The position numbers and the translations under genes are program-made. 64,000 nt of DNA from Ostreococcus lucimarinus. Lineage: Eukaryota. Shown here piece after piece: positions 12,352 through 30,726 of this stretch. A model generated the notes under the pieces. That model was not told the origin of the DNA and ran no database searches. It saw only the letters and a program-made list of their open reading frames with translations. The stretch's first letter is position 1, and every line of letters begins with the position of its first letter. The stretch is from NCBI GenBank assembly GCA_000092065.1, contig CP000589.1. One strand, 5' to 3'.

Positions 12352-14688
12352 TTACACGCGAAAGGACTTTGCGATCGCCTCGATCGCCTCGATGGCGCTA
12401 GATTCCACCCGGTCGTTGTGTGCGATCGATTGCTTGAGGGCACGGATGATATCGCGCGCGGGCGCGACGGCGGGCGGCGCGGCGCGGAGCCAGTCGGCGG
12501 GGAGGACGTCGACGACGGCTTGAAGCGACGCCGCGCACGCGGCTGGATCCACGAGCTGTAAACGCACGTAAGGGATGACTTGGGCGCCGATGATGCCGTC
12601 GGCGACGATGCGCTGAAGCGCGGCGCGGTCGACAATATCTTCAAACGCGAATGCGCTTCGAACGAGATCCAAAGCGAGTCGGAATTGAGCTTGGGCGTGA
12701 CGTGCGGCGTTTGGCGCGCACGTGGCAACTATTGGCGAATACGTCGGTACCGCGCATTCCTCTGCGCATCGCTTCAGTCGACGTTGTAACGCGATGACAA
12801 TCTCCTTTGCCTCTTCGTTCGCGCTCGGTTCGACGTAGACGAAGATATCCTTGAGCGTAGACGCCAGAGCGCGCGATTGCGCCGGATCTCGCGGTTCCCA
12901 CCACTCTTCCACAGCCTCCGATGCGATCGGTAAAACGACGTGCTGCACCATGTTGGGCAACAAATTCGCATCTTCGTCACCTTCGTCGATTTTTCCATCA
13001 ATCACGCCGTAGTCGAACAGTTGTCCGTACCAAGACATTGCGTCCAACGCGCCTGGCGCAGTTTTCCCAGCGAGCGGAAACAACGGAGACCATCCAATCA
13101 GTTCCAATCGCACGAAAGGAGCGAAGAGATTAGGGACGGAGACCGACATATACGTGCTCTTATACGAACCAAGGTGCGTGCGCTTCCATTCCTCGGCGTG
13201 CCTTTTCACCGCGCTGAGCGTCGAGAACTCTTCTGACGCGTCCTTGAGCATCGAGCTCGCCGCGTCTCTGGCGTCCGCCCAATCTTTGTGAAGCAATCCG
13301 ACCTCGCGTTCGTCCTCAGCGACCGCCATTGCCGTGTCGCTCGACTCACGTCGCTTTGATCGCGCCTTGACTTTTTCCCGCATCGCGATGTTCAAGTCTC
13401 TGCCCATGTCGTCCAACTTTTCACCGTGCAAACCTTTGGCGTTGAACACGGCGTCCCGAATAGCCGTCACCGCAGTCGCCTTCGCCTCGGTCTGCGAACC
13501 GCTGCGTTGTAACACTGCGTTCACCGCTTCCGCCGCGGCTTCCGCTTCGATCGCGCTCTCCTCGAACTCGGCATTCATCGCCTGCGTCAGCGCTTGCGCT
13601 CGTTCCGCGTGGAATTTTCTATAATGCTCCTCGAGCTCGTCTAAGATGAGCTTCTTTTCGTGCAGCATGGCGCACGCGTCTCTAAAGTAATCGCGCAACT
13701 TTTGAGTGAACACGTATCGCTCACTCGCATCCTTGAGCTCCTTCTCGTAAAACGCCAAAGCCTCTTGACTCTTCACCGCGTTTTCGTCGGCGCGAGTCGC
13801 CTCCCTTCTCGCCGTCTCGCTCGACGACTCCGCTGCCTCCAACGCGCGTTTCAAACTTTCGAACGCTTCCATACCACCTCGTTCGATCGAAACCCCAGTA
13901 CCCGCCCGCTCCATCGTCGCTCGCGCGTCCCGAGCGCTTCGACGCATCTCCGGCTCGTCCCTGAACACGCGTTGCAACTGCGCGCGCTCAAACTCATCGT
14001 CGTCGCTCCCCGGCAAGATATCACCCTCCACGTACCCCGCATACCTATCTCGCGCACCACCGTCTCGCACGCTCTTAAACGCCACGCGCTCTCGGCGTCC
14101 GCCGCTAGAATCTAAGTCGACGTAATCCGCCGCCGTCGATTTCGCCCTCGCCGCCTCCCGCTTCGCCTTCGCCTCCGCGATCGTCTTCGCGTCCGGAATC
14201 ACCGTTCCCACCCCCCCCGCCGTCTCGCGCGCCGGCGGCGGCGGCGTCCACGCCTCCGCGCTCGTCCCTCCGAAGACGTCGCTCGCCGACCGTCCCGCCG
14301 TCCCGCTCGCCGCCGCGCCCCCCCTGTCCTCCGGTCGATCTCGCAGCGTCGCCTGCTCGCGCCGCAGCGCCGCCAGCGCCGCCGCGTCGTACGTTCGCGT
14401 CTCCCCCGTCGTCGTCGTCGTCGTCCCTCGTCGCGCGTCCATCGCCGCGACGCCTCGTCGTCTCGTCGCCTTCGCCGCGCGCGCGTCGCCGCCGCCGCCG
14501 CCGTCGTCCTCGTCGTCGTCGCGCGGCGCGTCGTCCTCGAACGACAGCAGCGCGCGCGCGCTCGACGCTTTCTTTCGCGCGCGCGGCGTCGTCGTCGCCG
14601 GCGTCGCGTCGTCGCCGTCGCGCGTCGCGTCGCCGTCGCGCGTTCGATTCGCCGACGACGATTTCGTCGCGCGACGACGGAACGCCAT
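12352..14688 (-). CDS. GCFC-domain protein (PAXBP1 / GC-rich-sequence DNA-binding-factor-like; probable splicing/intron-lariat factor)
   Basis: N-terminus MAFRRRATKS...ALLSFEDD...DDDEDD resembles PAXBP1 (MFRKARR...SLLSFQDEEEE). The C-terminal half has GCFC-like motifs (YMSVSVPNLFAPFVRLELIGWSPLF; WWEPRDP). Start moved from 14844 to 14688. Confidence 0.6.
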   Translation of the reverse strand: MAFRRRATKSSSANRTRDGDATRDGDDATPATTTPRARKKASSARALLSFEDDAPRDDDEDDGGGGGDARAAKATRRRGVAAMDARRGTTTTTTGETRTYDAAALAALRREQATLRDRPEDRGGAAASGTAGRSASDVFGGTSAEAWTPPPPARETAGGVGTVIPDAKTIAEAKAKREAARAKSTAADYVDLDSSGGRRERVAFKSVRDGGARDRYAGYVEGDILPGSDDDEFERAQLQRVFRDEPEMRRSARDARATMERAGTGVSIERGGMEAFESLKRALEAAESSSETARREATRADENAVKSQEALAFYEKELKDASERYVFTQKLRDYFRDACAMLHEKKLILDELEEHYRKFHAERAQALTQAMNAEFEESAIEAEAAAEAVNAVLQRSGSQTEAKATAVTAIRDAVFNAKGLHGEKLDDMGRDLNIAMREKVKARSKRRESSDTAMAVAEDEREVGLLHKDWADARDAASSMLKDASEEFSTLSAVKRHAEEWKRTHLGSYKSTYMSVSVPNLFAPFVRLELIGWSPLFPLAGKTAPGALDAMSWYGQLFDYGVIDGKIDEGDEDANLLPNMVQHVVLPIASEAVEEWWEPRDPAQSRALASTLKDIFVYVEPSANEEAKEIVIALQRRLKRCAEECAVPTYSPIVATCAPNAARHAQAQFRLALDLVRSAFAFEDIVDRAALQRIVADGIIGAQVIPYVRLQLVDPAACAASLQAVVDVLPADWLRAAPPAVAPARDIIRALKQSIAHNDRVESSAIEAIEAIAKSFRV

Positions 14689-14804
14689 CGCGACGCGCGC
14701 GCGCGACGACGGCGCGAAAACGACGGAATCGGCGTCGCGCGTCGCGTCGCGAGAGCGCGTCGCGCGCGCGCGTGTGGCGCGTTCATGAATGAATCGATGC
14801 GTCG

Positions 14805-17800
14805 ATGGCGCGCGCGCGTTCGACGAAACGGCGTCGCCGCACACCGACGCGCGCGCGCGGCGTCGCGCGCATGGAGCGCTCGAGCGCGCCGTCGCGCGCC
14901 GTCGCGTCGACGCGCGCGCGCTCGCGCGCGTCGAGCGCGTCGAGCGACGTCGACGCGTCGCGCGCGGTGTCGAACGCGCTCGCGCGTTTGAAAACGCTCG
15001 CGACGACGACGACGGCGCGGGAATCGCGCGCGCGCGGCGCGGACGTCGCGCGCGCGATCGTGGACGCGTTCGAGGCGCTGGCGCGCGCGGAGGCGCGCGG
15101 AGGACGACGGGCGGAGGGAGACGCGGTGGAGGCGGCGCGACGCGCGGCGCTCGGACGCGCGGCGGACGACGACGAGGGGAGGGAATCGGACGGCGAAAGC
15201 GAGCGCGACGCGCGCGCGGTGGACGCGCTGTATGGATTGCGGCGGGCGGTGCACGCGGAGGGGTGTTCGGGGGACGTGCGGGTGAATTGCGCGCGCGTGG
15301 TGGAGGCGTTCGCGCGCGAGCCGGCGTCGACGACGACGGAGGCTCGGTGGCGCGCGCTCGTGGATTGCGTGCCGAACACGCCGAGGTCGGGACGCGAGAT
15401 CGTGGCGATGGCGTCGCCGAACGCGCGCGTGGGCGTCGGATCGCGGGATTGGGCGTTGAGCGTCGGCGCGGCGTTGGCGACGGCGGCTCGATGGAACGAC
15501 GTCGCGGCGACGGAATTGTTTGAACTCATCGACGATAAGATTCAGGGAGGCGCGGGCGAGCGCGTGGTTGGGTTGACGCTGCTTCACGCCGCGCTCGCCG
15601 TCGATGGTTTAGTCGCGAGCGATGATTTAGTCGTCGCCGTGCACAAGGCGTTGACGGCGGTGAGCGGCGCGCCGGTGGAGAATGGATTCGCGTGCGCGAG
15701 CGTCGGCATGCGTTGCGTGTGCGCGGCGGCGAGGAACCTTTCCATGGGCGACGTCAGGACGTTACGAAGCGCGTGGCTCGAGCCGAGACTGCGTGCTCAA
15801 GGATTTACCTGGCACAGCGCGCAAAGCGACGAGTCGCGCGCGACGCTTTCGCTCATTGAATATTTAAAAATCCCGCGAGACGAGCGGCTCGGCGCGACGG
15901 CGATGTCGGCGTTTTTGATAGCTGATTTGGATCTCGTCGGTTACGTCGACGCCGAGGAGTTCAAACGCAAAGTCGTGCACGGGTCGGTCGATCTGGATAG
16001 TCCGGCGTTTCGCGCGCTCGCGGCGAGCGAACGCGCCGTCGGACGAACCGTCGCGGCGGCAATCATCGCCACGCAAATGAATCTCATTCACACGCTTTAC
16101 GTCGCACCTGGTCAAGAAGATGACGCGGACGAGTTACGGATGAAAGTAGCTACTGAGGGTGGAAGGATTCTGTGCGGTAAAGCTCTCGATTTACTTCGAC
16201 TGGAGCGCGCGAATACGGCGAGTTTGACAGAGAACGCGCAGATGAAGGTTGAGGAGCTGACCACGGATGCTCAACCGAGCACGTTCTTCGGGGTTTTGAG
16301 CTACGCACTGACGACGAACGTGATCGATATCGATGAAAATGAGCGCGCAAAGCTCGTTTCGTGGTGCTGCGACAAATTGAGTGAAAAATTCGTCACCGCG
16401 ACGGATGCTTCGATGCGCGCGATGATCACCTCTGGCTGCTTGAGCGCTCTCTTACGCCTCGCCGAGACATCGGAGAACGCAGCGATGGCGGACGCATGTA
16501 TGCAGTGCGTTTCGGTGCTCATCGATCTGATATTGGTACCTAGCACACTGTACGACTTTGTCGAAATCATAGCCTTCAAAACACCGTCGTTGGATTTACT
16601 CGGCGTTGAGAGCAAGTCAGAGGACGACAAACGAGCGACTTACGTGGTGGCGGCGCTGAATTGGTCGGTGTCTCGTATTCGAGCCTCATCGACGGTTGCA
16701 CAAGCCGACAAATCACTCAACTTATTCAGAAGATTATTTGTCTTGCTCCCGGAAACGGAGCACACGACTTGGTTGGAATATTTCACTGACGCGTACGCGA
16801 GCGCCGCGTTGTGGGCGGGCTGCGTCGAAAAAGAAGTCGCGGTGGATACTGACCGCGTGCTCGCAGATGACGCGGCGCGCAAGTGTGTAGAGTCGTTCGA
16901 AGCTGATATCTCACGCGAGACATCGAAAAAGACGCCAGAGTGGTTGGGAAATCTTCAAACGCGCGCGAGATGGTTGAATGAAGCGTTTGCTGCGCTCGGC
17001 GAAGACGCCTACCTTAGAGCACACTTCACCGCAGACCTCGCCGCAATCGTGTCAAAGTCTGTGGATGTCGGACTCCAAGGTTCGACCGACCCGAAAGTCA
17101 ATGCATCGTACTGGCCATATGAAAGCAAGCGTCCACTCATCGTCCCTCGCGCGCCGCTGGGACCGGGTGGTATTTTGGCGACGTCGGCTGCGACGTTTGA
17201 TCTCATCGCCAAGCAGCTTGAATCGCAATTTCTCGCGATCGAGACGAGTTTGCAGAAATCACTGATGGAACACACTGGTCTAATTCACATGATGACCACG
17301 GTAACATCAGCCGTCGCCGCCGCTGGCGTCGCCATCAAGACACCGGGCGGCGCGAGCGCGGGGCGCGTCGCCGCCGCCGCCGCGCGAGCGCTCGTCCTAG
17401 TGGCGCAATCCATCACGCATCTGCACGTCACTGTTAACTGCAGTGAGATGCAATTGAGAAACGAAGAACGGGAGCTCCTGTTGCTCACCAAACAGTTACT
17501 CGAAGCGTCCAACGTTATGGAGCAAAGGAAGACGCTTGAAGCCGCGCCGGGGGTGCATCGCCGTCGCTACGCCGCGGCCCGCGCGGCGTTGGCTCGCGCC
17601 CTCAGTCTCACCGATGCCTCCTCCGAAGACATCAAATTCGAGCTCAACAAAATTCGCAAGCGTCGACACTCAAAGCGCTGGACGGAAAAGCACCAGCGTC
17701 CACCGACCGCGCCGCGTCCCGCCTCCGCCGTCAACTTCACCGCTCGCGAAGCCGAGCCCGACGACTTCGTCGACGAGGACGGCGTCTCCATACTCGAAGC

Positions 17801-17894
17801 CTTCGAGCCGAGCACGGACGAGGAATCCGACAGCGGCGATAACGACGACGACGCCTTCGTCGTGCGCGGGATGCAGGACTTCGACGAACCATAG
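14805..17894 (+). CDS. large hypothetical protein (~1000 aa), helical/ARM-like with acidic C-terminus; function unknown (possibly a Rix1/PELP1-type scaffold, unverified)
   Basis: A single 3.1-kb ORF. The 5' ~700 bp is extremely GC-rich and the 3' half is ~50% GC. No confident family assignment. Confidence 0.6.
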   Translation: MARARSTKRRRRTPTRARGVARMERSSAPSRAVASTRARSRASSASSDVDASRAVSNALARLKTLATTTTARESRARGADVARAIVDAFEALARAEARGGRRAEGDAVEAARRAALGRAADDDEGRESDGESERDARAVDALYGLRRAVHAEGCSGDVRVNCARVVEAFAREPASTTTEARWRALVDCVPNTPRSGREIVAMASPNARVGVGSRDWALSVGAALATAARWNDVAATELFELIDDKIQGGAGERVVGLTLLHAALAVDGLVASDDLVVAVHKALTAVSGAPVENGFACASVGMRCVCAAARNLSMGDVRTLRSAWLEPRLRAQGFTWHSAQSDESRATLSLIEYLKIPRDERLGATAMSAFLIADLDLVGYVDAEEFKRKVVHGSVDLDSPAFRALAASERAVGRTVAAAIIATQMNLIHTLYVAPGQEDDADELRMKVATEGGRILCGKALDLLRLERANTASLTENAQMKVEELTTDAQPSTFFGVLSYALTTNVIDIDENERAKLVSWCCDKLSEKFVTATDASMRAMITSGCLSALLRLAETSENAAMADACMQCVSVLIDLILVPSTLYDFVEIIAFKTPSLDLLGVESKSEDDKRATYVVAALNWSVSRIRASSTVAQADKSLNLFRRLFVLLPETEHTTWLEYFTDAYASAALWAGCVEKEVAVDTDRVLADDAARKCVESFEADISRETSKKTPEWLGNLQTRARWLNEAFAALGEDAYLRAHFTADLAAIVSKSVDVGLQGSTDPKVNASYWPYESKRPLIVPRAPLGPGGILATSAATFDLIAKQLESQFLAIETSLQKSLMEHTGLIHMMTTVTSAVAAAGVAIKTPGGASAGRVAAAAARALVLVAQSITHLHVTVNCSEMQLRNEERELLLLTKQLLEASNVMEQRKTLEAAPGVHRRRYAAARAALARALSLTDASSEDIKFELNKIRKRRHSKRWTEKHQRPPTAPRPASAVNFTAREAEPDDFVDEDGVSILEAFEPSTDEESDSGDNDDDAFVVRGMQDFDEP

Positions 17895-17959: not shown

Positions 17960-18922
17960 ATGCCCTTCACCTCCCCGCCCCTCCAGCGCGCCTTCGCCGC
18001 CGTCGTGTACGTCAGCGAGGGTCGTCGCACCGCCGTCCTCGACGTCATCGAGCGCGTCGCGCGCGAGGCGACCGCGCCTCGTCGTCCCGTCGCGCTGGTG
18101 AACGTCTTCAGGGACGCCGAGTACAACAGGACTGGGTTCACCCTCGCCGGCCGCGACGTCGATGACGTCCGACGAGCCGCGCTCGACGTCGCCCAGGTGT
18201 CTCTGCGCGAGGTGGACATGCGCGCGCACGACGCCACGCACCCGAGAGTGGGCGTGGTGGACCACGTGAGTTGTCACGCGTTGGCGGGCGAACGCGCCGG
18301 CGCGGCGAAACTCGCGAAATCCATCGGTGAAGGCTTGGGAACGCTGGGCGTGCCGGTAAAATTATACGGAGACGCGGCGAGCGATGGGATCGGGCTGGAT
18401 GAGATTCGGCGACGGAGTGGGTACTTTAGCGGCGCCGCGGGCGGGCGGTGGACGGGGGAGTTCGCCGTCGAGCGCGGGTTCGCGTTCGATTACGGCCCGA
18501 GCGACGTGCCCGAGCGCGAGGGGTTCGGCATGGTGGGCGCGGTGCCTTGGGTGTGTAACTATAACGTCCCTCTGGCGTTCACGTTCGCGGATGAGGGTTT
18601 GGATGCGGAGACGAGGATGACGCGCGCGATGGCGTTTGGACGCGCCGTGGCCAAGCGCGTATCGGCGCGCGGCGGCGGTCTACCCTCGGTGCAATCCATG
18701 GCGTTGCCACACGGCGGAAAAGTCGAGGTGGCGTGTAATTTATTAGACGTCGACGCGTCGTCCACGGCGGACGTGCAGCGCGCGACGGCGGCGGCGGTGG
18801 CGGAGACGGACGCGCTCAAAATTCTAGGCGCCGGCGCGTCGGCGATGGTGGAAGACGGTTACGTCACCAATCAAACCCCAGAGAGCATCATCCGCGCCAT
18901 CGATGCGATCGACGCGCGTTAG
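17960..18922 (+). CDS. formiminotransferase-domain protein (FTCD N-terminal transferase domain only, no cyclodeaminase domain)
   Basis: Matches FTCD-N blocks: VVYVSEGRRTAVLDVIERV / LVNVFRDAEYNRTGFTLAG / HPRVGVVDHVSC / VPVKLYGDAA / DYGP / GMVGAVPWVCNYNVPL. Confidence 0.8.
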   Translation: MPFTSPPLQRAFAAVVYVSEGRRTAVLDVIERVAREATAPRRPVALVNVFRDAEYNRTGFTLAGRDVDDVRRAALDVAQVSLREVDMRAHDATHPRVGVVDHVSCHALAGERAGAAKLAKSIGEGLGTLGVPVKLYGDAASDGIGLDEIRRRSGYFSGAAGGRWTGEFAVERGFAFDYGPSDVPEREGFGMVGAVPWVCNYNVPLAFTFADEGLDAETRMTRAMAFGRAVAKRVSARGGGLPSVQSMALPHGGKVEVACNLLDVDASSTADVQRATAAAVAETDALKILGAGASAMVEDGYVTNQTPESIIRAIDAIDAR

Positions 18923-19040
18923 TTCGCCCCGCGTTCGCTTTAATGCATTCATCTCATTCGCGCGACGCTTCGGCGCGTTCCATCGGCGCGCGCGTCTCGG
19001 ACGCCTCGACTCGTCCTCACACCTCGACGCGCCGGTCGAC

Positions 19041-20039
19041 ATGCCCGACGCCGAATTGGACGATCGCGACTGCCTCACGCGCTTCGCCGCGCACCACCGC
19101 GACGTGTTCAACAAGGAGATTTTGTCCAAGATGAAGACGCCGCGTCGCGCGTGCCCGTGCGGGCGCGCGAACGAAGTGCCCAGTTGCAGAATTCACTACG
19201 CCGTTTTGCGGTGCGTGAACCGCACGTTCAGGAAGTTGCTGCCGCCGTACGAGGAGGTGATGGCGAAGAAGAACGAACTGCTCGTGTGGGATCGCGTCAC
19301 GGGTAGACCAGGGGTTTCGAAAAGCGAATTACAACGTTACGTCTGCATGCACGCCGCGCCGAAATTGATGGAAAAGACGATTCGCGCGCGCGACGAGGCG
19401 GGCGACAGGCTGTGGTGGGCGGTGAAAGAAACACTCGATGATATGGCCGCAGGTCGAGATAACCCTAAGTATGAGTGCGAGGTGTGCGGGAAGTTCGTAT
19501 GCGTCTTCTGTGGCGCGGCTTGTGCGTGTCCAGAATGCAACGACGTGCGAACGTGCCGAGAATGTGCCGAGACGTATGAAAACTTTACGTTCTGCAAGTC
19601 TTGCAAAATCGCGTACTGCAACGATGGCGATGAGTACGACGATGAAAGTAATTGTGACAAAGACATAGTATACTGCTCAGAATGCGATAGATTCCGTTGC
19701 TCGGACGATTGTCAGAACGACCTGATGTTCTGCGAAATATGTTCCGACGCGGACCCATTTTGCTTGGACTGCACATGGCGCCATCATGTCAATTGTGACG
19801 GGTGCGGTGGACATCTCATGTGTGAAGGACACAACGAGGTCGATGAATATCTAACATACGTGGGCGACGACGACGATCAACCAGAAGGGTACTGGTATCT
19901 GTGCGATAGTTGTCTGAATCCACGCCCGTGGAAGCCGCCGATCGAGAAACCTCCACGAAAGGCGCCGATCAAGAAACCGAGAAGCCCAAGCGTTTCGCCT
20001 CGCATGTCGTTCTCAAGCTGCACGGACGACATCGACTGA
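19041..20039 (+). CDS. cysteine-rich protein with ~20 CxxC pairs (putative multi-zinc-binding domain); unclassified
   Basis: ORF starts at the ATG right after the FTCD stop. Central region CEVCGKFVCVFCGAACACPECNDVRTCRECAETYENFTFCKSCKIAYCNDG...CSECDRFRCSDDCQNDLMFCEICSDADPFCLDCTWRHHVNCDGCGGHLMCEGH. Confidence 0.6.
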   Translation: MPDAELDDRDCLTRFAAHHRDVFNKEILSKMKTPRRACPCGRANEVPSCRIHYAVLRCVNRTFRKLLPPYEEVMAKKNELLVWDRVTGRPGVSKSELQRYVCMHAAPKLMEKTIRARDEAGDRLWWAVKETLDDMAAGRDNPKYECEVCGKFVCVFCGAACACPECNDVRTCRECAETYENFTFCKSCKIAYCNDGDEYDDESNCDKDIVYCSECDRFRCSDDCQNDLMFCEICSDADPFCLDCTWRHHVNCDGCGGHLMCEGHNEVDEYLTYVGDDDDQPEGYWYLCDSCLNPRPWKPPIEKPPRKAPIKKPRSPSVSPRMSFSSCTDDID

Positions 20040-20893: not shown

Positions 20894-23800
20894 TCATTCG
20901 TTGTCGCGGGGATCCACGAGCTCGTACGATGCGTCCGCCTCTTCGTTGAGCATGCGATCGATTTCATCGAGACGCTCGGCGAGCGTTTCGTCTCCATCTT
21001 CGTCGCCCATCGGCGCCGACGGTTTTCCATCGAAATCGCATCCAGTATACGAGTCATTCAACCGGCAGTAATCGATGAGACTCCTCCAGTGCACGTCGTG
21101 GCTCAAGATGTGAGGATTACCCACGATGATCAAGAGTGACATTGCGCGCGTCACGGCAACGTTGAATCGCTTTGGATTCGCCATGAAACCGAGGCGATGG
21201 CGAGCGTCAAACTTCAAATGGGCAGTGTCGCTGCGAACGGTTGATAAGATGACTACGCTAAACTCTTGTCCTTGCAAGAGTTCAGTCGAACCCACGGTGA
21301 CTCCAGAAATCTTTTTCGCTTCGAGGTGTTTCATCATCTTCAGTTTTTGCTTGTGATACGGTGTACAGATGGCGATGTCTTTGGCTGTCAAACCCGTGTT
21401 CTTTCGGTCCAAAATTTTCGTGATCCACGAGCTCACTCGAAGTATCTCGTCGGGATTAAACCAAGATGGCGAATTCGCCTCTCGGAGTTCTTCGCCCATG
21501 ACACCGTCGAAAACGACTGGAAACGATGGATTCGGAAGCTCTTCCCATCCCTTGAAAATGTTCGTCCGCATGGGATCGGCGCAACATTCCAGCCTGTCAA
21601 AGTAGAATAACTTCGACGGAATTTCGATGATGCACGCGTGCGAGCGATAATTTTTCGTGAGCATGCACACTTTACTTGGCTCAAACGTACCGTCCGCGCG
21701 AACGCTATACGGAGTCTCAGTGTACGGCGCCGGAGGTAAGCACAGACGCTCGAGCATACTGACTTCCAAAGCTCTCGATTCCTTGGCTTGCACCAGCGGT
21801 CCCAGCTGTCGGGCGTCGCCGGCCAGAACCAGACGCCCTTTTTTTGGCTCTAATACGCTGACGATGGCGGTGAGAAGTTCGGGCTCCGATGCATGACCTG
21901 CTTCATCGATGATGACATTTTCAAAGCGACGCTCCGGCGATAAAATGAACACTTTCCTCGCTTTCCCTTTTCCGTACTCACCAGAGTCTCGAAACGTCCG
22001 CGTGAGTCTCTGCGCCGTAATCGGTGTCATGGCAACCACTCGAGCTCGCATGAATCTCTCAACAGTCGGCGGACAAAAAACGTTTGCAGTACTATCGTAG
22101 TTTGAGACGTCTAAGAGCTTCGATGGCACCTGATCGGGCATTCGAGAGAAATTGTAGACGCGATACGCTTCGCTCTTTGGAACGCCACCGTGCTCGATGA
22201 CGCGTGAGATGAACAAGTCACACGCCGCGTTACTTGGAGCCATCAACAAGACTCTTCCGCCAGTTTTATACATCTGCGCCGCTATCTCCACGACAGTAGT
22301 CGTCTTACCAGTACCAGGAGGTCCAAAAATGATGAATGGAGATTGTGAACGCGGCGCCATCGCGTTCGCAACTGCGAGCTTTTGTTCCTCGTTTAAGCGC
22401 CGATTCAACATTTTCAGATCTGATCTGCCAGTCGCGTCTACGTCGAGATCGTCGCCAAACTTTGGAAGCAAAAATGACTCATACGACGAAGATTTCAGAG
22501 AGTCTTTAATCGCGCCATGCATGAGTTCTATCGCGGTGCGCGACACTTCAAACGACACGTCAGCCTTGACCCCATTGATGTATGCTTTCGTGAAACCAGG
22601 ATGGAATCGGCACACGATGTGCTCAGCTTCCACGAATTCAACTTTCCCTCGAAATGAGCTTTTAGCCGTGGACAAATCGACGATGATCGAGTCGCCACGA
22701 AGCACCGATGGACGAGCTTCAGCGAGGCCTGGGACGAAAAGTCTATACATGGCTTTGGAATTGGTCTGCGAGAGCGCGACGTTGTGCATATCGTACAATC
22801 TCACGTTTTTGGTCGCCTGCACTTCTTCCATCATGAGCAGCTGACGAAAGAACTGAGCGTAATTCGTCTTCGAGAGATACTTTTGTCCGGTTTCTAGCAT
22901 TTCAGTAACAGAAGATGCCTGTGGTTCCTCGCCGTCGAGCGCTTTCCGAATGTCAGCCATGGGAACGGAAAGCGGAGCCGGCCAGAAGAACTTTGTCTTC
23001 GCGTTTAAAACCTCTTTCGAAGGGCCTGGATCGACGACTTTCTTCGACCCCTTCACCAAACTCGAATTTTTCTGCTGTTTCGGATACGCGAACGCGCTCG
23101 TCGGCCCGAGCGCGATTCGTTCCGCGCTCTCCTGCGCGCTTTCCCTCGCTCGAAGACGCAGCACGAGCACCGAGAGCGTAATCTCGCCCGACTCGACGTC
23201 GTCTTGATACGTTCGATACGAGAAGACGAGTGAAACGTCGTGCACCCCCGCCTTCAAATCCTTCGCCCAATCATCTCTCAAACACACGGCGTTCTCCACC
23301 TCCAGCATTCCTCCCTCCTTCACCTCTCCCTCGAACGTTTTCAGCGTCGGCTCCTCCAACACGCGATCGCCCAAATCGTCTCGGGCGAGCCCGAACGCGC
23401 CGAACAAAACCGTCACCTTCTCCCCCGCATCGATCGGCAATTTCAGCACCACCGACGCGCTTTTCAAATCCGACGCCGACGAGATCTTTCGCGGCACCAG
23501 CGTCTCCTTCGGCGTCGCCTCCGCGCCCGCCTCCGCGCTTCGTCGAAACGTCGCCGCTCGATGTTTCGCGCCGCGCTCGTGCTCCTCTCGTCCGCACGCC
23601 GGCACGTCCACGTCGCACACGTCGCATCGATACGCCCCTAACAGCGCGTCTCGCGCGTCTCTCGCGTTCGAGCGGTGCGCCCTCGTGCGCTCGTGCTCGA
23701 ACCGCGCGCGCGCGGGCATCGACGCATCGCACGCGACGCATCGCCAGGTCAACGAGTCGCGCGTCCGCAGCTTGGCGCGATGCCGCGCGCCGCGCTCGTG

Positions 23801-23938
23801 CGTCGGCATCAAGCGCGCGGGAACGTCGCAATCGCACACTTCGCATCGCGTCGGCGCGCGCGCGCCGTCGACGGGCATGACGCGCGCGCGCGGCGCGATG
23901 TGACGAGTCTCGGAGATCGACGCGACGAGGGGTGCCAT
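20894..23938 (-). CDS. SF1 (UPF1-like) RNA helicase of the MOV10/SDE3/Armitage type, preceded by three C2H2 U1/matrin-type zinc fingers
   Basis: Motifs I GPPGTGKT, II DEAGHASEPE, III VLAGDARQLGP, IV KNYRSHACII, V STVRS...GFMANPKRFNVAVTRA. The N-terminal CEVCDCDVPARLMPTHERGARHRAKL, WRCVACDASMPARARFEHERTRAHR and YRCDVCDVDVPACGREEHERGAKHRA are C-x2-C-x12-H-x5-H fingers. Start moved from 24067 to 23938 (MAPLVAS...). Confidence 0.85.
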   Translation of the reverse strand: MAPLVASISETRHIAPRARVMPVDGARAPTRCEVCDCDVPARLMPTHERGARHRAKLRTRDSLTWRCVACDASMPARARFEHERTRAHRSNARDARDALLGAYRCDVCDVDVPACGREEHERGAKHRAATFRRSAEAGAEATPKETLVPRKISSASDLKSASVVLKLPIDAGEKVTVLFGAFGLARDDLGDRVLEEPTLKTFEGEVKEGGMLEVENAVCLRDDWAKDLKAGVHDVSLVFSYRTYQDDVESGEITLSVLVLRLRARESAQESAERIALGPTSAFAYPKQQKNSSLVKGSKKVVDPGPSKEVLNAKTKFFWPAPLSVPMADIRKALDGEEPQASSVTEMLETGQKYLSKTNYAQFFRQLLMMEEVQATKNVRLYDMHNVALSQTNSKAMYRLFVPGLAEARPSVLRGDSIIVDLSTAKSSFRGKVEFVEAEHIVCRFHPGFTKAYINGVKADVSFEVSRTAIELMHGAIKDSLKSSSYESFLLPKFGDDLDVDATGRSDLKMLNRRLNEEQKLAVANAMAPRSQSPFIIFGPPGTGKTTTVVEIAAQMYKTGGRVLLMAPSNAACDLFISRVIEHGGVPKSEAYRVYNFSRMPDQVPSKLLDVSNYDSTANVFCPPTVERFMRARVVAMTPITAQRLTRTFRDSGEYGKGKARKVFILSPERRFENVIIDEAGHASEPELLTAIVSVLEPKKGRLVLAGDARQLGPLVQAKESRALEVSMLERLCLPPAPYTETPYSVRADGTFEPSKVCMLTKNYRSHACIIEIPSKLFYFDRLECCADPMRTNIFKGWEELPNPSFPVVFDGVMGEELREANSPSWFNPDEILRVSSWITKILDRKNTGLTAKDIAICTPYHKQKLKMMKHLEAKKISGVTVGSTELLQGQEFSVVILSTVRSDTAHLKFDARHRLGFMANPKRFNVAVTRAMSLLIIVGNPHILSHDVHWRSLIDYCRLNDSYTGCDFDGKPSAPMGDEDGDETLAERLDEIDRMLNEEADASYELVDPRDNE

Positions 23939-24249: not shown

Positions 24250-26904
24250 TTAAGAAAACGCGAGTAGATTTTCAACGGTCACACGGCGCGTCTTGACAAT
24301 CGCCAACAACTCAACTGAAGCGATGGACACCAAAAGGAAGAAAAACGCGGCGTTACCACCCGCTTGAGACAAAACTTGAAGCGGAGGTAGCTTGTACTTC
24401 CGTGTACACGAGTATGGGAAATTTTCTTTAGTCCAGGCACACATTCGATCGCGACCGATTTCATCAAAAATTGTGCGGAACGTGTTCAAGACGAGCGCGT
24501 CATTTCGATCCATCACTGCCGTATAGCTCACCGCGATGCCGCCCGCTTTATATTCATCTGTTGTGAGTATCAAGGAGCCATGTACTGTTCCGCTGATGTG
24601 GTTGGTAAAATTGGTTTGCTGATTTTGAAAAAAGGTGTCGAAAGTAGCGTTCACCGTGCCCATCATATTTGCGTAGTACTTGTATGAAGGACCAAATCTG
24701 CCCCACGGACGGAGGTAAGCCGATGGCTGCCGCCCATAATCCGCGTCACTATAGCTCAATATCCCTTGGCCAGGTCCAAATGAAGGCGTGGACTGCTCAA
24801 GCTCGCTTAAACCCGAGTTCGTCAGCGATGGTTCTTCGATTTTGGCTAAACATTCATCGTATGTCCAATTCTTGCCATACCAGATAGCGTCCTTCAATGG
24901 ACGACACGTGAAACCTTCCTTTTCGAGGACATTTTCTACCACCGTTTCCGTAAACTCCTGAGTCGCGTAAAACTGCAGGAGCAACGCAAATACAATCAAA
25001 GAGGCTGCCCCGAGAACAAAGCACACTAAAAGTGTGCGTATAGGTGACATGACGAGGTCCAGATCGGTCACTCGGAACCACTTGTCCTCCATCGGTAAAC
25101 GTGCCTTCCAGCCCAGAGGATTGCTCGCGGGGAGGCGCTTGATTATGATGGCCACTATCCACATGAGGCTTGCGGCGATGAACTGAGCGTTACCATATGA
25201 GAGAGAGAGGCGCGTGAGTGTATCGGGCGGGCCTGACTTTTTGCACTCGTACGGCGAGTTTTCCTTCGTGAAAAGGCACACCTCGTCGCCTGCGACATCC
25301 ATCATGGCTTTCCACACCTCGACTGCATCCGCCTTGAGTGCGTCTGTCCATGAGTTGGAAGGTGCATTGATTAGAATACGAGTCGACTGGGGTTTTCCTC
25401 CAACGAGAAACGAAGCCGGATCTTCCCAGTGATCGAGATCGGTCGTCGCGCTGTATTGAGTCAGCGTAGCGTTTGGGCGTTCTTTGCCCCAAAACGCTTG
25501 CGATGAAACGCCTTCTTTGGATGCATTAAACGGAACATATTTCGCTTTGATTGGGACCGGATTCGGCATGTTCAATGGATCGCCCTGCCAGGATTCGAAA
25601 TTAATATTATCCACCGTGATGTCCTGTAAAGCAGCCTTGCAGTCGTCGAACGTATATCGCACACCGTAACCGAGGTTGTCTGTCGTCAACGGCGTGCAGT
25701 TGTATCCAGGCATTGCCCAAGAACCTGTGATTTGAATATCGGTGATGTACTGCGAAGTCGACGAAAAGTACTGGTAAAACCATGCAAACGTTCCTACACC
25801 GACGGCACAGATGGTAAGCGAAAAGAAACCAACGACCAGCGTGTTCGACACGAATTCGAGCGGCTCCTCGTCGTAAAATTCGGGAGGAAAAGATAACTTT
25901 TCAATCCAGGTTTTCTCATTGGTAGCCTTTGGAGCTTTGCGGAAAAAGCCTATGAAGGTGGGTAAAGTAGCAAGGAACACGGTGATCACGAGCCCAGCAT
26001 TATTATTCGACAGACCAATCATTTCTAAAGCAGTCATTCTTTTCGACTTCAAACACTTGTACGGCAAGTTGTGCTTGGTGAATTCGCACACGTCGCCTCC
26101 ATTGACGTATTCAATCGTCTTGCTGAACAACTGCAAGAAATGAGCCGCGCTGGTGTTAAAAGTCTCGCAATCGCCGACGATTCCATTGGTGCTGCCACCT
26201 CCGGAACGCCTGATTTGGCCCGCGTTGCACGTCGCGCCAGACGGGTTTGGGTACTGCCTGCAGTCGCCGTTGTTTACAACTTGATTGATGTATGTTTCAA
26301 TTTCTGGCGTACGTGATTCCGGAAGCTTTGGCCAAATACCTCGATGGGCTTGAACACTACCGAACGGATTGTAATACACCGAATTCTTCACCGAGCAGTT
26401 ATAGGGTATAGTGCCCCCGTTACTATAGTCAGTACGTGTCAGGTAACCTCCAGCGGCGATAGCCTCTGCATTGGCGATATCAAAGCCAATTGCACTCTCT
26501 GTCAATGGCACTATCTTCGTTAAACACTCTTCGTACGTATAGTTTAACCCGTAAAATTCATCCGGGCTCAACGGCGCGCAGTCGTAGCCAGCGATCGCCG
26601 TGGAGTCGCTGATGATCGTATCCGTCACCCAGCGCGCTTCGTCCGCGTAGTAAAACAACGACCCGATGAATGCCAAGGTAGCGAGCGTGTGCATCGTCAC
26701 CGCCCCGCCGTAGGCCATCCACACTGGTCCTTTGAATTCGAGATACCGCTCGCGCGCCCAATAAATTTCAGGTACTGGAAGTCTTCGTATGAATCGCTCG
26801 ACGGAGCCCCTCGCCTTGCGCGCGCGCTGCTTGATCGACGAGGGCGCCGGGGCCGATGCCGACGCGTGCGTCATGATGAACGACGGGCTTCCGCGCGCGG
26901 GCAA
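24250..26904 (-). CDS. novel six-TM membrane glycoprotein built from three tandem [juxtamembrane motif - TM - ~190-aa Cys-containing ectodomain - TM] modules; no recognisable family
   Basis: Uninterrupted 884-codon ORF. Three internal repeats each carry Y(D/N)C(A/T)PL...Y(T)(Y/F)(E/D)(E/D)C(L/K)..I near TM-a and C-x-(F/W)TKEN-x-PY-x-C before TM-b. Six hydrophobic helices. At least 10 NxS/T sequons lie in the predicted ectodomains. The 5' end is GC-rich and the body is ~50% GC. Confidence 0.7.
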   Translation of the reverse strand: MPARGSPSFIMTHASASAPAPSSIKQRARKARGSVERFIRRLPVPEIYWARERYLEFKGPVWMAYGGAVTMHTLATLAFIGSLFYYADEARWVTDTIISDSTAIAGYDCAPLSPDEFYGLNYTYEECLTKIVPLTESAIGFDIANAEAIAAGGYLTRTDYSNGGTIPYNCSVKNSVYYNPFGSVQAHRGIWPKLPESRTPEIETYINQVVNNGDCRQYPNPSGATCNAGQIRRSGGGSTNGIVGDCETFNTSAAHFLQLFSKTIEYVNGGDVCEFTKHNLPYKCLKSKRMTALEMIGLSNNNAGLVITVFLATLPTFIGFFRKAPKATNEKTWIEKLSFPPEFYDEEPLEFVSNTLVVGFFSLTICAVGVGTFAWFYQYFSSTSQYITDIQITGSWAMPGYNCTPLTTDNLGYGVRYTFDDCKAALQDITVDNINFESWQGDPLNMPNPVPIKAKYVPFNASKEGVSSQAFWGKERPNATLTQYSATTDLDHWEDPASFLVGGKPQSTRILINAPSNSWTDALKADAVEVWKAMMDVAGDEVCLFTKENSPYECKKSGPPDTLTRLSLSYGNAQFIAASLMWIVAIIIKRLPASNPLGWKARLPMEDKWFRVTDLDLVMSPIRTLLVCFVLGAASLIVFALLLQFYATQEFTETVVENVLEKEGFTCRPLKDAIWYGKNWTYDECLAKIEEPSLTNSGLSELEQSTPSFGPGQGILSYSDADYGRQPSAYLRPWGRFGPSYKYYANMMGTVNATFDTFFQNQQTNFTNHISGTVHGSLILTTDEYKAGGIAVSYTAVMDRNDALVLNTFRTIFDEIGRDRMCAWTKENFPYSCTRKYKLPPLQVLSQAGGNAAFFFLLVSIASVELLAIVKTRRVTVENLLAFS

Positions 26905-29806: not shown

Positions 29807-30556
29807 TTACGCTACGACGCGCGCCTCGCCGCCTAACAATCGTCGATGGTTGAGAACGATGTGTAGGAAATACCCAGCGAGCACGAGATTGAGCGCAGTA
29901 CACAGCGTTTGCACGCTGCGCGTCTTAAACGTCATCACAAACATCCAAAACGCGGGAATCGACGCCGCGAGCTTCTTGTCGAGCGTGTGCACGGTGTCCA
30001 TGTCGTGAAAATACAGCAACATCACCCCAAGCAGCGCGGTCGTCAAGTACACGCCCCCACTTCCCGTTTCTTCCTTGCCTTTTGAAAACTTTCCCTGTGC
30101 AAAATTCGCCGCCCGTTCGCGCTTGAGCTCGTCGCGAGTCGCGTTCAACTGCTCCCTCAACCGTTCCCGAATCTGTTCCTCTTCCTTTAATTTCGCGCAC
30201 GCCGCGATGAATTTCTCTCGTTCGATCTCCGACATCTTTCGAAACGCCTCAATCTTCTCGCTCGACGACCGCGAATACTCGCGAAATATCTCGCCGTCGT
30301 CTTTGATTTCCGCCGCGCACGCCGCCGCCAGGCTCGGCTTCAACGCCAGCGCGTACAACCCGCGCAACAGCGCCCGCACGTCCGTGCCGCGAGACATCGT
30401 CAATTCGCGCAGCATCGCGCTCGCGAGCTGCATCGGCAGCGCCGCGAACGCCGCCGCGTGCGCGACGACGCCGAGCGGAAGGACGAACAATGCCAGCGTA
30501 ATCGTTGTGCTCAGCTCTTTCGCGCGTCCGAGCGCGCGCGTCGCCGCGTCCGTCAT
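29807..30556 (-). CDS. hypothetical membrane protein with N- and C-terminal hydrophobic segments and a central K/E/R coiled-coil
   Basis: 249-codon ORF, divergent from the MYST gene. No family recognised. Confidence 0.45.
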   Translation of the reverse strand: MTDAATRALGRAKELSTTITLALFVLPLGVVAHAAAFAALPMQLASAMLRELTMSRGTDVRALLRGLYALALKPSLAAACAAEIKDDGEIFREYSRSSSEKIEAFRKMSEIEREKFIAACAKLKEEEQIRERLREQLNATRDELKRERAANFAQGKFSKGKEETGSGGVYLTTALLGVMLLYFHDMDTVHTLDKKLAASIPAFWMFVMTFKTRSVQTLCTALNLVLAGYFLHIVLNHRRLLGGEARVVA

Positions 30557-30726
30557 CGTTCGAGCGCGCTCGATTCGTGCGATCGGTGTCCTTCGTCCTT
30601 CGCGCGCGTCTCGGCGCCCGTTCGCGGCGCGCGACGCGCGTCGGGCGTCGACGCGCGTCGACGAGTAGCGCGACGGTTCAACGAGATCTGCATTCCCACG
30701 CGCGCGGGCGTCGCGGACGAGCGACG

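Follow-up and report, generated by a model that had tools for sequence, protein, structure and literature searches.

UPF1-like SF1 helicases of the MOV10 family are known from RNA silencing in animals and plants, where MOV10, SDE3, Armitage and ERI-6/7 act; transposons as well as viruses are silenced by homologues of MOV10 (PMC8161014). Zinc fingers occur in other UPF1-like helicases. HELZ2 is a UPF1-like SF1 helicase whose N-terminal JAZ/SF3a60-like C2H2 fingers, proposed to be dsRNA binders, alternate with CCCH fingers, and whose two helicase cores flank an RNB exonuclease; both HELZ2 and the zinc-finger helicase ZNFX1 are antiviral (PMC10516660). dsRNA binding is also known for JAZ-type fingers (PMC5100589). 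In the MOV10 literature covered here, including a study dedicated to MOV10/MOV10L1 evolution (PMC9319325), a zinc finger is not mentioned.

Here, we analysed a window of 64,000 nucleotides from Ostreococcus lucimarinus that contains a gene for a helicase with three N-terminal zinc fingers (Table 1). Its reading frame runs uninterrupted and intron-free from an ATG at 23938 to a TGA at 20894-20896, and a metagenomic protein (P0001) is identical to the 1014-aa product. The genes around it (DUF1499, FTCD, peroxidase, Vps18, MYST acetyltransferase and DEAD-box helicase) are unrelated housekeeping genes, and a functional gene cluster was therefore rejected. The product of the adjacent gene is identical to O. 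lucimarinus XP_001419526.1.

Table 1. Coordinates of the helicase gene and of the features predicted in its product (window positions; aa, residues of the protein).
Feature	Position	Strand	Evidence
Complete single-exon CDS, MOV10-family helicase, 1014 aa + stop	20894..23938	-	ORF list and translation
Three-finger array (aa 29-137), each beta-hairpin, helix, kink, second helix; pitch 35-38 aa	23528..23854	-	
Finger 1, CEVCDCDVPARLMPTHERGARH (aa 32-53), lineage-specific duplicate	23780..23845	-	Regex; MOV10-finger HMM 7.8 bits
Finger 2, CVACDASMPARARFEHERTRAH (aa 67-88), lineage-specific duplicate	23675..23740	-	Regex; MOV10-finger HMM 10.2 bits
Finger 3, CDVCDVDVPACGREEHERGAKH (aa 105-126), ancestral MOV10 finger	23561..23626	-	Regex; MOV10-finger HMM 15.6 bits, best of three
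Beta-rich middle region and linker (aa 190-343)	22910..23371	-	hhalign; low-confidence full-length model
Helical segment ahead of barrel (aa 344-381), equivalent to Mov-10_helical	22796..22909	-	hhalign collinearity; model helices aa 344-382
MOV-10 beta-barrel domain (aa 382-463)	22550..22795	-	Pfam PF21634 E 6.1e-19, 67.7 bits vs cutoff 23.6
UPF1-like SF1 helicase core (aa 515-942)	21113..22396	-	AAA_11/AAA_12, motif scan, PDB likeness
Acidic C-terminal tail (aa 965-1014), ends ASYELVDPRDNE, without GW/WG repeats	20897..21046	-	Inspection and motif scan

Pfam detected AAA_11 (E 1e-26) and AAA_12 (E 4e-40) in the protein, and a motif scan found helicase motifs I-VI intact (Walker A GPPGTGKT at 539, DEAG at 678, GDARQLGP at 707, YRSH at 764, TELLQGQE at 885 and TRA at 930). 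The PF21634 beta-barrel lies directly upstream of the helicase core and is found in all 26 aligned relatives. Frog MOV-10 (P0076) was among the top matches, with 42% identity over aa 355-973 and ~390 bits, against 113 bits for a UPF1-like protein. The Mamiellales and animal MOV10 alignments were collinear in hhalign (E 1e-146, probability 100%), and a neighbour-joining tree, the only type of tree built and one that left out reference SDE3, Armitage, HELZ and ZNFX1 sequences, supported the MOV10 placement with a bootstrap of 91/100. As judged from these comparisons, the gene is the MOV10 (SDE3/Armitage) orthologue of O. lucimarinus and an ordinary member of this family of UPF1-like SF1 RNA helicases, which occurs throughout the eukaryotes. 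The first-pass annotation had placed it in the MOV10/Armitage/SDE3 clade of SF1 helicases, and the beta-barrel, AAA_11/AAA_12, the intact motifs and the MOV10-nearest scores bear this out.

The searches behind this assignment differed in yield. A word-indexed search with the O. lucimarinus protein returned 12 relatives, to which a rerun with a 26-sequence profile added none; the productive searches were exhaustive HMMER and a search seeded with starfish MOV-10. The sequence search of the PDB matched the UPF1 helicase core (E 8e-31) and returned UPF1, IGHMBP2 and SEN1 helicase cores only, with no MOV10 structure. NCBIfam gave generic SF1 matches only, and its FlhF and FtsY matches were dismissed as P-loop noise. 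UPF1 proper was rejected, as its CH domain (UPF1_Zn_bind, PF09416) went undetected and the alignment to UPF1 structures is confined to the helicase core. A HELZ2-like identity was rejected as well, as just one helicase core is present and Pfam detected neither a CCCH nor an RNB domain. For the O. tauri orthologue, the annotation reads merely 'P-loop NTPase' or 'RNA helicase'. The cluster of the O. lucimarinus protein counts 383 members, metagenomic Ostreococcus variants, and of those looked at, none bears the name MOV10. Our analysis corrects this annotation: the O. lucimarinus and O. tauri proteins are MOV10 orthologues with a genuine array of three fingers, predicted to bind RNA.

Between the fingers and the barrel, the same hhalign comparison aligns the protein collinearly with animal MOV10 from ~aa 231, starting in the final part of the animal MOV-10 Ig-like domain. 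The full-length AF2 model (5 sequences) has beta strands at aa 198-263; it is poor, with a mean pLDDT of 51, and was kept out of the fold search. A Pfam scan of the 1014-aa protein detected none of MOV-10_N, MOV-10_Ig-like and Mov-10_helical, the last of which is found in 15 of the 26 relatives. As the fingers begin at aa 32, there is no space for MOV-10_N. The sole GW is that of a conserved FKGW at aa 797, within the core, and the C-terminal tail contains no Trp.

Three fingers had been proposed for the N-terminal 200 aa with the spacing C-x2-C-x12-H-x5-H. Three are indeed present, but the spacing of each is C-x2-C-x11-H-x5-H, one residue short of the x12 consensus of U1/JAZ fingers. When the N-terminal 200 aa were shuffled 20,000 times, just 2 of the shuffled sequences contained at least one such motif. 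In five orthologues (48-55% identity), all 12 zinc ligands are invariant, against 8 of the 107 other positions in aa 22-140 (Fisher p 1.3e-11); ~93% of the positions around the ligands thus vary. Fingers 1 and 3 share 57% of their non-ligand residues. A finger HMM built solely from non-Mamiellales MOV10 proteins recovers all three (E 1.6e-7) and finds nothing else among the 694 six-frame ORFs of the window, where the next best match has an E of 0.26.

The Pfam models zf-met, zf-C2H2_jaz and zf-U1, run on the whole N-terminus and on single fingers, all stayed below their gathering thresholds. The best score was that of finger 3 against zf-met (16.2 bits vs 21.2, E 0.013), while zf-C2H2_jaz reached 13.6 bits vs 22.6 and zf-U1 13.3 bits vs 22. 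Finger 3 matches, column for column, the fingers of relatives that score E 6.9e-11 with zf-met, 1.5e-5 with jaz and 1.3e-4 with U1, and PF12874 is precomputed on the MOV-10 homologues of Asterias, Lytechinus and Owenia. Recovery by HMMs depends on the model: the fingers are sub-threshold in Pfam, and the MOV10-finger HMM finds every one. Homology to passing fingers and the AlphaFold fold argue for the U1/matrin/JAZ type first given to them, and the sub-threshold Pfam scores and x11 spacing fit that type less well. Homology and structural modelling together indicate that the three predicted fingers are genuine despite these Pfam scores.

A homologous finger lies ~430 aa ahead of Walker A in MOV10 orthologues from echinoderms, hemichordates, molluscs, an annelid, a nemertean, an insect, an amoebozoan, basidiomycetes and chlorophytes; finger 3 lies 434 aa upstream of it. 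The distance is 405-460 aa in 35 of the 40 finger-bearing relatives, and the columns of C105, C108, H120 and H126 show no variation in an alignment of 26 MOV10-like proteins from algae, animals, fungi and an amoebozoan. The x11 spacing is also seen in fungal and other MOV10 fingers. In the sampled vertebrate and amphioxus MOV10 proteins, the finger is absent. These comparisons show finger 3 to be the ancestral MOV10 finger, held at a fixed distance from the core in many lineages, and fingers 1 and 2 to be duplicates that arose within the Mamiellales, in place of the animal MOV-10_N. On the sequence evidence, an N-terminal finger is an old and common part of the MOV10 family that was lost in vertebrates and tripled in the group of O. 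lucimarinus. The suggestion that the fusion of fingers and helicase is foreign to canonical MOV10 is thus not borne out, although it does hold for vertebrate and amphioxus MOV10. As the U1/JAZ-type finger is widespread over eukaryotic supergroups and missing in the sampled chordates, the well-studied vertebrate MOV10 may be a derived form.

AF2 predicts all three fingers confidently. Their best structural matches are the JAZ/ZNF346 and U1-C fingers, with SF3A2, PRP11, ZMAT5 and Bud20 as further neighbours; the predicted fold is bb-a plus a second helix, with long linkers that are not of the TGEKP type. We consider it reasonably probable that the protein is a MOV10 orthologue whose three U1/JAZ-type fingers serve an RNAi-independent 5'-3' RNA helicase acting on structured or duplex RNA. 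RNA binding, zinc binding, helicase polarity and cellular role would carry over by analogy with its homologues. The fingers, on long helical linkers as in dsRNA-binding JAZ and ZFa, would bind A-form duplex or structured RNA independently of sequence and hold the enzyme on that region. The ATP-driven helicase would then translocate 5'-to-3' along the adjacent strand, unwinding structure or stripping proteins. As Dicer and Argonaute are reportedly missing from O. lucimarinus and O. tauri (PMC4014436; a statement of the literature, not a genome scan), its job would probably be RNAi-independent RNA surveillance, that is, mRNA/RNP remodelling and decay, possibly with restraint of retroelement or viral RNA in addition. 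Such a role may be likened to what mammalian MOV10 does in connection with UPF1 and independently of Argonaute.

The protein could instead be an innate-immunity or genome-defence factor, in which the finger array senses duplex RNA of viruses or retroelements (prasinovirus, LTR elements) and the helicase restricts them, replacing lost RNAi. The antiviral and transposon-silencing activities of MOV10 homologues, HELZ2 and ZNFX1 described above are in keeping with this, and multiplied dsRNA fingers would increase avidity for long duplexes. Divergence between the Ostreococcus species also appears fast (54-55% identity), and there are 3 to 4 fingers. However, the gene lies among ordinary housekeeping genes, and prasinoviruses are dsDNA viruses. 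We regard a dedicated defence role as unlikely. A broader form of this idea concerns picoalgae that gave up Dicer and Argonaute but kept MOV10, with its dsRNA-type finger multiplied to three or four copies. By itself, the protein would both sense and act on long duplex or structured RNA that stems from retroelements, viruses or antisense transcription, an RNA-based genome defence without RNAi. On this view, the finger would already have guided the ancestral MOV10 as a helicase of dsRNA, and the chordate enzyme, which lacks it, would be a derived exception. We offer this as a distinctly speculative proposal with a low chance of being right.

dsRNA is not the sole candidate ligand, because U1-type fingers also serve protein contacts and snRNA-duplex recognition. 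The fingers may be mainly a module for protein interaction or for binding DNA or RNA:DNA hybrids, with a role in the nucleus, in chromatin or at R-loops. RNA:DNA hybrids are among the ligands of JAZ-type fingers, and matrin-type fingers are capable of DNA binding. U1-C, SF3A2, PRP11, ZMAT5 and Bud20, all among the structural neighbours, work in RNPs through joint RNA and protein contacts, and the finger region is only mildly basic (24 K+R vs 19 D+E), which is consistent with such a module. Yet a JAZ finger that binds dsRNA is the top match in structure, the long helical linkers suit the ZFa/JAZ class, and the attached enzyme belongs to a known family of RNA helicases, which makes a finger array that does not bind dsRNA quite unlikely.

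The first-pass annotation had further suggested that the fusion marks an RNAi-related factor in this lineage, with fingers that would recognise siRNA duplexes or their precursors. The action of MOV10, SDE3, Armitage and ERI-6/7 in silencing and the dsRNA binding of JAZ-type fingers speak for such a role, but it is unsupported, as the host is reported to be without Dicer and Argonaute and the protein carries no GW Ago-hook repeats. Moreover, no PAZ, Piwi or RNase III domain was found in the large window ORFs scanned, and the finger is an ancestral trait of the family and not a lineage-specific gain. Among the other sources, PMC2287173 holds no usable statement on Ostreococcus RNAi genes and PMC3446292 covers Coccomyxa only. 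A small-RNA role is very improbable. Finally, that the fingers are decaying, functionless relics whose degeneration keeps them under the Pfam thresholds is hardly credible: vertebrate and amphioxus MOV10 do without the finger and the gene model of a Mamiellales-like relative (P0048) has none, but the ligands are invariant amid variable surroundings, the finger number rose instead of falling, and AF2 folds all three confidently.

The persistence of MOV10 in an alga reported to be without Argonaute and Dicer provides natural evidence for an RNAi-independent core role of the family. O. tauri, in which homologous recombination can be used, is genetically tractable enough for testing the role of MOV10.

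The closest described counterparts of the O. lucimarinus protein are invertebrate MOV10 proteins (Patiria miniata XP_038054523.1 'putative helicase MOV-10', Lytechinus, Crassostrea and Bacillus rossius). In these too, a U1/JAZ-type finger lies ~430 aa ahead of Walker A. The Ig-like, helical and beta-barrel regions and a UPF1-like SF1 core come after it, and the O. lucimarinus protein is collinear with them from within the Ig-like domain onwards. They carry a single x12 finger after MOV-10_N, whereas the alga has three x11 fingers and MOV-10_N is undetected. Vertebrate MOV10 has the helicase family, beta-barrel domain and motifs in common with the algal protein, with a Cys/His-free linker at the position of the finger. 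Arabidopsis SDE3 and Drosophila Armitage are of the same helicase family. SDE3 reportedly carries a GW Ago-hook, as the title of a 2012 paper by Garcia has it, and an SDE3 subtype with Ago-hook was rejected for the O. lucimarinus protein, which has no GW/WG repeats. Unlike this protein, the dsRNA-binding proteins ZNF346/JAZ and Xenopus ZFa consist of fingers with no enzyme attached; sequence identity is just ~14%, and their spacing is x12 as against x11 in O. lucimarinus. A similar arrangement is found in MOV10-like helicases of basidiomycetes (Auriscalpium vulgare KAI0048937.1, Tulosesus angulatus KAF6757614.1 and Clavulina KAF8320843.1), which have two or three N-terminal fingers, several of them x11, no MOV-10_N, and a last finger 422-434 aa before Walker A. 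As basidiomycete and O. lucimarinus fingers have 14% non-ligand identity, compared with 43% among O. lucimarinus's own, finger multiplication in basidiomycetes appears to have occurred independently.

The MOV10-type gene is an uninterrupted minus-strand ORF that runs from a first ATG at 23938 to a TGA at 20894-20896 and encodes 1014 aa, in exact agreement with the coordinates in the first-pass annotation (20894-23938). Three domains of the protein score above threshold against Pfam (MOV-10 beta-barrel, AAA_11 and AAA_12), and a motif scan found all SF1 motifs intact. An exhaustive HMMER search with the protein retrieved 1,400 proteins with E-values of 1e-30 or lower. For the best 150, identity is ~37-56%, and most alignments begin near query aa ~345 and extend to the C-terminus. 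These best 150 include a frog 'helicase MOV-10' (P0076), scallop and acorn-worm 'putative helicase MOV-10' (P0079 and P0150), starfish and stick-insect MOV-10, and a sea-cucumber 'putative RNA helicase SDE3'. When the profile of five Mamiellales sequences was compared with that of 16 animal MOV10 homologues, nearly all of which carry the MOV-10 name, the probability was 100% (E 1e-146) and the match was collinear over aa 231-972, from the end of the Ig-like domain through the helical domain and beta-barrel to the helicase. In a neighbour-joining tree (826 columns), the protein falls within a Mamiellales clade (100% support) adjoining the chlorophyte Edaphochlamys; this clade lies inside the MOV10 ingroup, and 91 of 100 bootstraps split that ingroup from UPF1-like and other SF1 helicases. 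The beta-barrel, the profile-profile match and this tree, which contains no reference SDE3, Armitage, HELZ or ZNFX1 sequences, bear out the assignment to the MOV10 family. The nearest solved structures by sequence are UPF1 helicase cores (E 8e-31), with the alignment limited to the core.

Domains, helicase motifs and zinc fingers of the O. lucimarinus MOV10-family protein
Feature	Position (aa)	Evidence
Finger 1	32-53	Cys2-His2 motif
Finger 2	67-88	Cys2-His2 motif
Finger 3	105-126	Cys2-His2 motif
MOV-10 beta-barrel	382-463	Pfam E 6e-19, 67.7 bits (cutoff 23.6)
AAA_11	starts 515	Pfam, above threshold
GPPGTGKT	539	helicase motif
DEAG	678	helicase motif
GDARQLGP	707	helicase motif
YRSH	764	helicase motif
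TELLQGQE	885	helicase motif
TRA	930	helicase motif
AAA_12	to 942	Pfam, above threshold

The protein is an under-annotated new member of this family. Its orthologue P0002 is 54-55% identical and clusters with O. tauri OUS47729.1 and XP_022839118.1, whose annotation goes no further than 'P-loop NTPase' or 'RNA helicase'. A metagenomic sequence identical to the protein is flanked by the same neighbour genes. The C-terminus (aa 1002-1014, 20897-20935; ...SYELVDPRDNE) ends in an acidic D-P-x-(W)-R-x-E-like motif, and similar endings (e.g., DPEWRxE) are found at the C-termini of algal, fungal and animal MOV10; human MOV10 is reportedly controlled via an acidic degron at its C-terminus, which CRL4-DCAF12 recognises (PMC8161014).

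The formiminotransferase (FTCD) neighbour, 17960..18922 (+), has a product identical to XP_001419526.1 of O. lucimarinus CCE9901. Its end overlaps by 20 bp the start of a gene for a 378-aa protein (18903-20039, +) with no Pfam match, whose cluster members examined all derive from metagenomes or sequencing runs; the C-terminal half is dense in CxxC pairs (~40 Cys) and looks like a multi-zinc-binding module. Upstream of the helicase gene, 24250-26904 (-) encodes a predicted 884-aa membrane protein, also without a Pfam match, with three internal repeats of conserved Cys motifs (G-Y/F-x-C-x-P-L ... Y-T-Y/F-D/E-E/D-C ... C-x-F/W-T-K-E/H-N-x-P-Y-x-C), each followed by a hydrophobic segment. GC content peaks locally at 0.716 in 14001-16000 (about 0.55-0.65 elsewhere), covering the start of a 1029-aa ORF with no Pfam match (14805..17894, +). 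An ordinary DEAD-box helicase gene (55759-57840, +; DEAD and Helicase_C) and an ordinary MYST-family histone acetyltransferase gene (30505-32070, +; Tudor-knot, zf-MYST and MOZ_SAS) are not linked to the MOV10 gene.

The spacing of the three fingers is C-x2-C-x11-H-x5-H, one residue less than the x12 first read, and their recovery by Pfam HMMs formally fails, with best scores of 16.2 bits for zf-met (finger 3; gathering cutoff 21.2), 13.3 bits for zf-U1 (cutoff 22) and 13.6 bits for zf-C2H2_jaz (cutoff 22.6). Four lines of evidence show that the fingers are genuine. When the N-terminal 200 aa were shuffled, only 2 of 20,000 shuffles contained at least one such motif. All 12 zinc ligands are invariant in five Mamiellales orthologues (48-55% identity), versus 8 of 107 non-ligand positions in aa 22-140 (Fisher p 1.3e-11). 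An HMM trained on 58 fingers from non-Mamiellales MOV10-family proteins only matches finger 3 (15.6 bits), finger 2 (10.2) and finger 1 (7.8), each with a one-residue deletion relative to its consensus, and among 694 six-frame ORFs of the window its sole significant match is the helicase ORF (E 1.6e-7; runner-up 0.26). Finally, AlphaFold2 models aa 22-140 with confidence (mean pLDDT 83.5) as a beta-hairpin, helix, kink and second helix repeated three times, at a pitch of 35-38 aa. Fold and homology support the U1/matrin/JAZ-like type proposed earlier, of which the fingers are, by sequence, a divergent x11 variant.

The first-pass annotation considered this fusion unusual, a view contradicted by its distribution. 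Of the best-150 representatives, 112 have 460 aa or more ahead of Walker A, and in 39 of these the region N-terminal of the helicase contains one or more C-x2-C-x9-14-H-x3-6-H motifs. In 35 of 40 finger-bearing proteins the distance from the last finger to Walker A is 405-460 aa (434 aa here), and C105, C108, H120 and H126 are invariant columns in an alignment of 26 sequences (animal, basidiomycete, green algal and one amoebozoan). Pfam detects MOV-10_beta-barrel in all 26 of these relatives, Mov-10_helical in 15, MOV-10_Ig-like in 10 and MOV-10_N in 3; the relatives' fingers, scanned singly, reach E 6.9e-11 (zf-met), 1.5e-5 (zf-C2H2_jaz) and 1.3e-4 (zf-U1). Finger number ranges over three in Auriscalpium and two in Tulosesus and Clavulina (basidiomycetes), two in the chlorophyte Edaphochlamys, and one in the amoebozoan Soliformovum and the insect Bacillus rossius. 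With starfish MOV-10 as the query, 120 animal homologues were retrieved, mostly named. A single finger of canonical x12 spacing with an H-x2-G-x2-H signature occurs in 35 of them, from echinoderms, hemichordates, molluscs, the annelid Owenia and the nemertean Lineus; its distance to Walker A is 387-449 aa (418-449 in 34 of the 35). A complete C2H2 motif is absent from the other 85, nearly all vertebrate (shark, teleost, frog, reptile, bird) or amphioxus MOV-10, in which the finger position, where inspected, is a Cys/His-free linker. Strongylocentrotus purpuratus (P0277) is also motif-less, keeping the CxxC and last His with the first His replaced by Tyr. The architecture is thus largely the standard one of an orthologue group, except that its well-studied vertebrate member has no finger. 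No zinc finger is mentioned in the MOV10 literature examined, which includes a paper devoted to the evolution of MOV10/MOV10L1 (PMC9319325).

The simplest reading suggests that one U1/JAZ-type finger was ancestral to the MOV10 family, was lost in chordates and multiplied independently in Mamiellales (3-4 copies) and basidiomycetes (2-3 copies). At non-ligand positions the O. lucimarinus fingers are 43% identical to one another (fingers 1 and 3, 57%) but only 14% identical to the x11 fingers found in other lineages; fingers 1 and 2 therefore arose by duplication within Mamiellales. They sit where animal MOV10 has MOV-10_N, which Pfam does not detect in this protein. Close relatives differ in finger number (3 versus 4): in the Ostreococcus-like orthologues P0003 (aa 31-52) and P0046 (aa 9-30), a fourth finger, whose second half is the variant H-C-A-S-x-E-H, precedes the other three. 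The 868-aa gene model of the Mamiellales-like P0048 has no finger and may be truncated.

The title of a paper cited in PMC8161014 calls MOV10 a 5'-to-3' RNA helicase, translocating along 3' UTRs and contributing to the degradation of UPF1 targets. Fingers of the ZFa, JAZ and wig-1 type have elaborated C2H2 folds, long linkers and a preference for double-stranded RNA (PMC5100589), and the array described here matches the ZFa/JAZ-class fold. From this fold and the finger pitch, and from MOV10 being a UPF1-like SF1 helicase described as 5'-to-3', we infer that the three presumably zinc-bound fingers would hold the enzyme on structured or double-stranded RNA irrespective of sequence, while the motor would load on the adjoining single strand, travel 5'-to-3' and unwind structure or displace proteins. 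The setting would be RNAi-independent RNA surveillance, through mRNA/RNP remodelling or decay, and possibly also restraint of retroelement or viral RNA. The analysis establishes the structure of the gene, its family, the fold and type of the fingers, their conservation and their evolutionary distribution; zinc and RNA binding, the polarity of the helicase and its function in the cell are inferred. That the protein is a dedicated antiviral or anti-retroelement sensor replacing RNAi seems unlikely. We hold it slightly less probable that the fingers are protein-interaction or DNA/hybrid-binding modules. In favour of this, spliceosomal and ribosome-biogenesis fingers, which make mixed RNA and protein contacts, are common among their structural neighbours, and the finger region is only mildly basic (24 K+R versus 19 D+E).

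A role in RNAi, as first suggested, is very improbable. The MOV10 homologues SDE3, Armitage and ERI-6/7 are known best from RNA silencing (PMC8161014). The link is unsupported here, because Dicer and Argonaute genes are both reported absent from O. tauri and O. lucimarinus (PMC4014436), the protein has no GW/WG Ago-hook repeats (its sole GW is a conserved FKGW inside the core), and the large window ORFs scanned contain no PAZ, Piwi or RNase III domains, 64 kb saying little genome-wide. The C-terminal tail has no Trp. With RNAi genes reported absent, the O. lucimarinus gene shows that the MOV10 family persists without RNAi. That the fingers are non-functional relics is scarcely credible given their invariant zinc ligands and gain in copy number.

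The first-pass observation of a helicase with three fingers is confirmed, with the spacing and Pfam result corrected; its interpretation holds for family and finger type, and is not borne out for the unusual architecture and the RNAi link. What sets the protein apart is a tripled ancestral finger, kept in an alga reported to be without RNAi. The proposed finger-anchored helicase has a partial counterpart in HELZ2, an antiviral enzyme that degrades structured RNA and likewise combines JAZ-like C2H2 fingers with UPF1-like helicases; unlike the algal protein, HELZ2 has C2H2 fingers that alternate with CCCH fingers, a pair of helicase cores and an RNB nuclease (PMC10516660).
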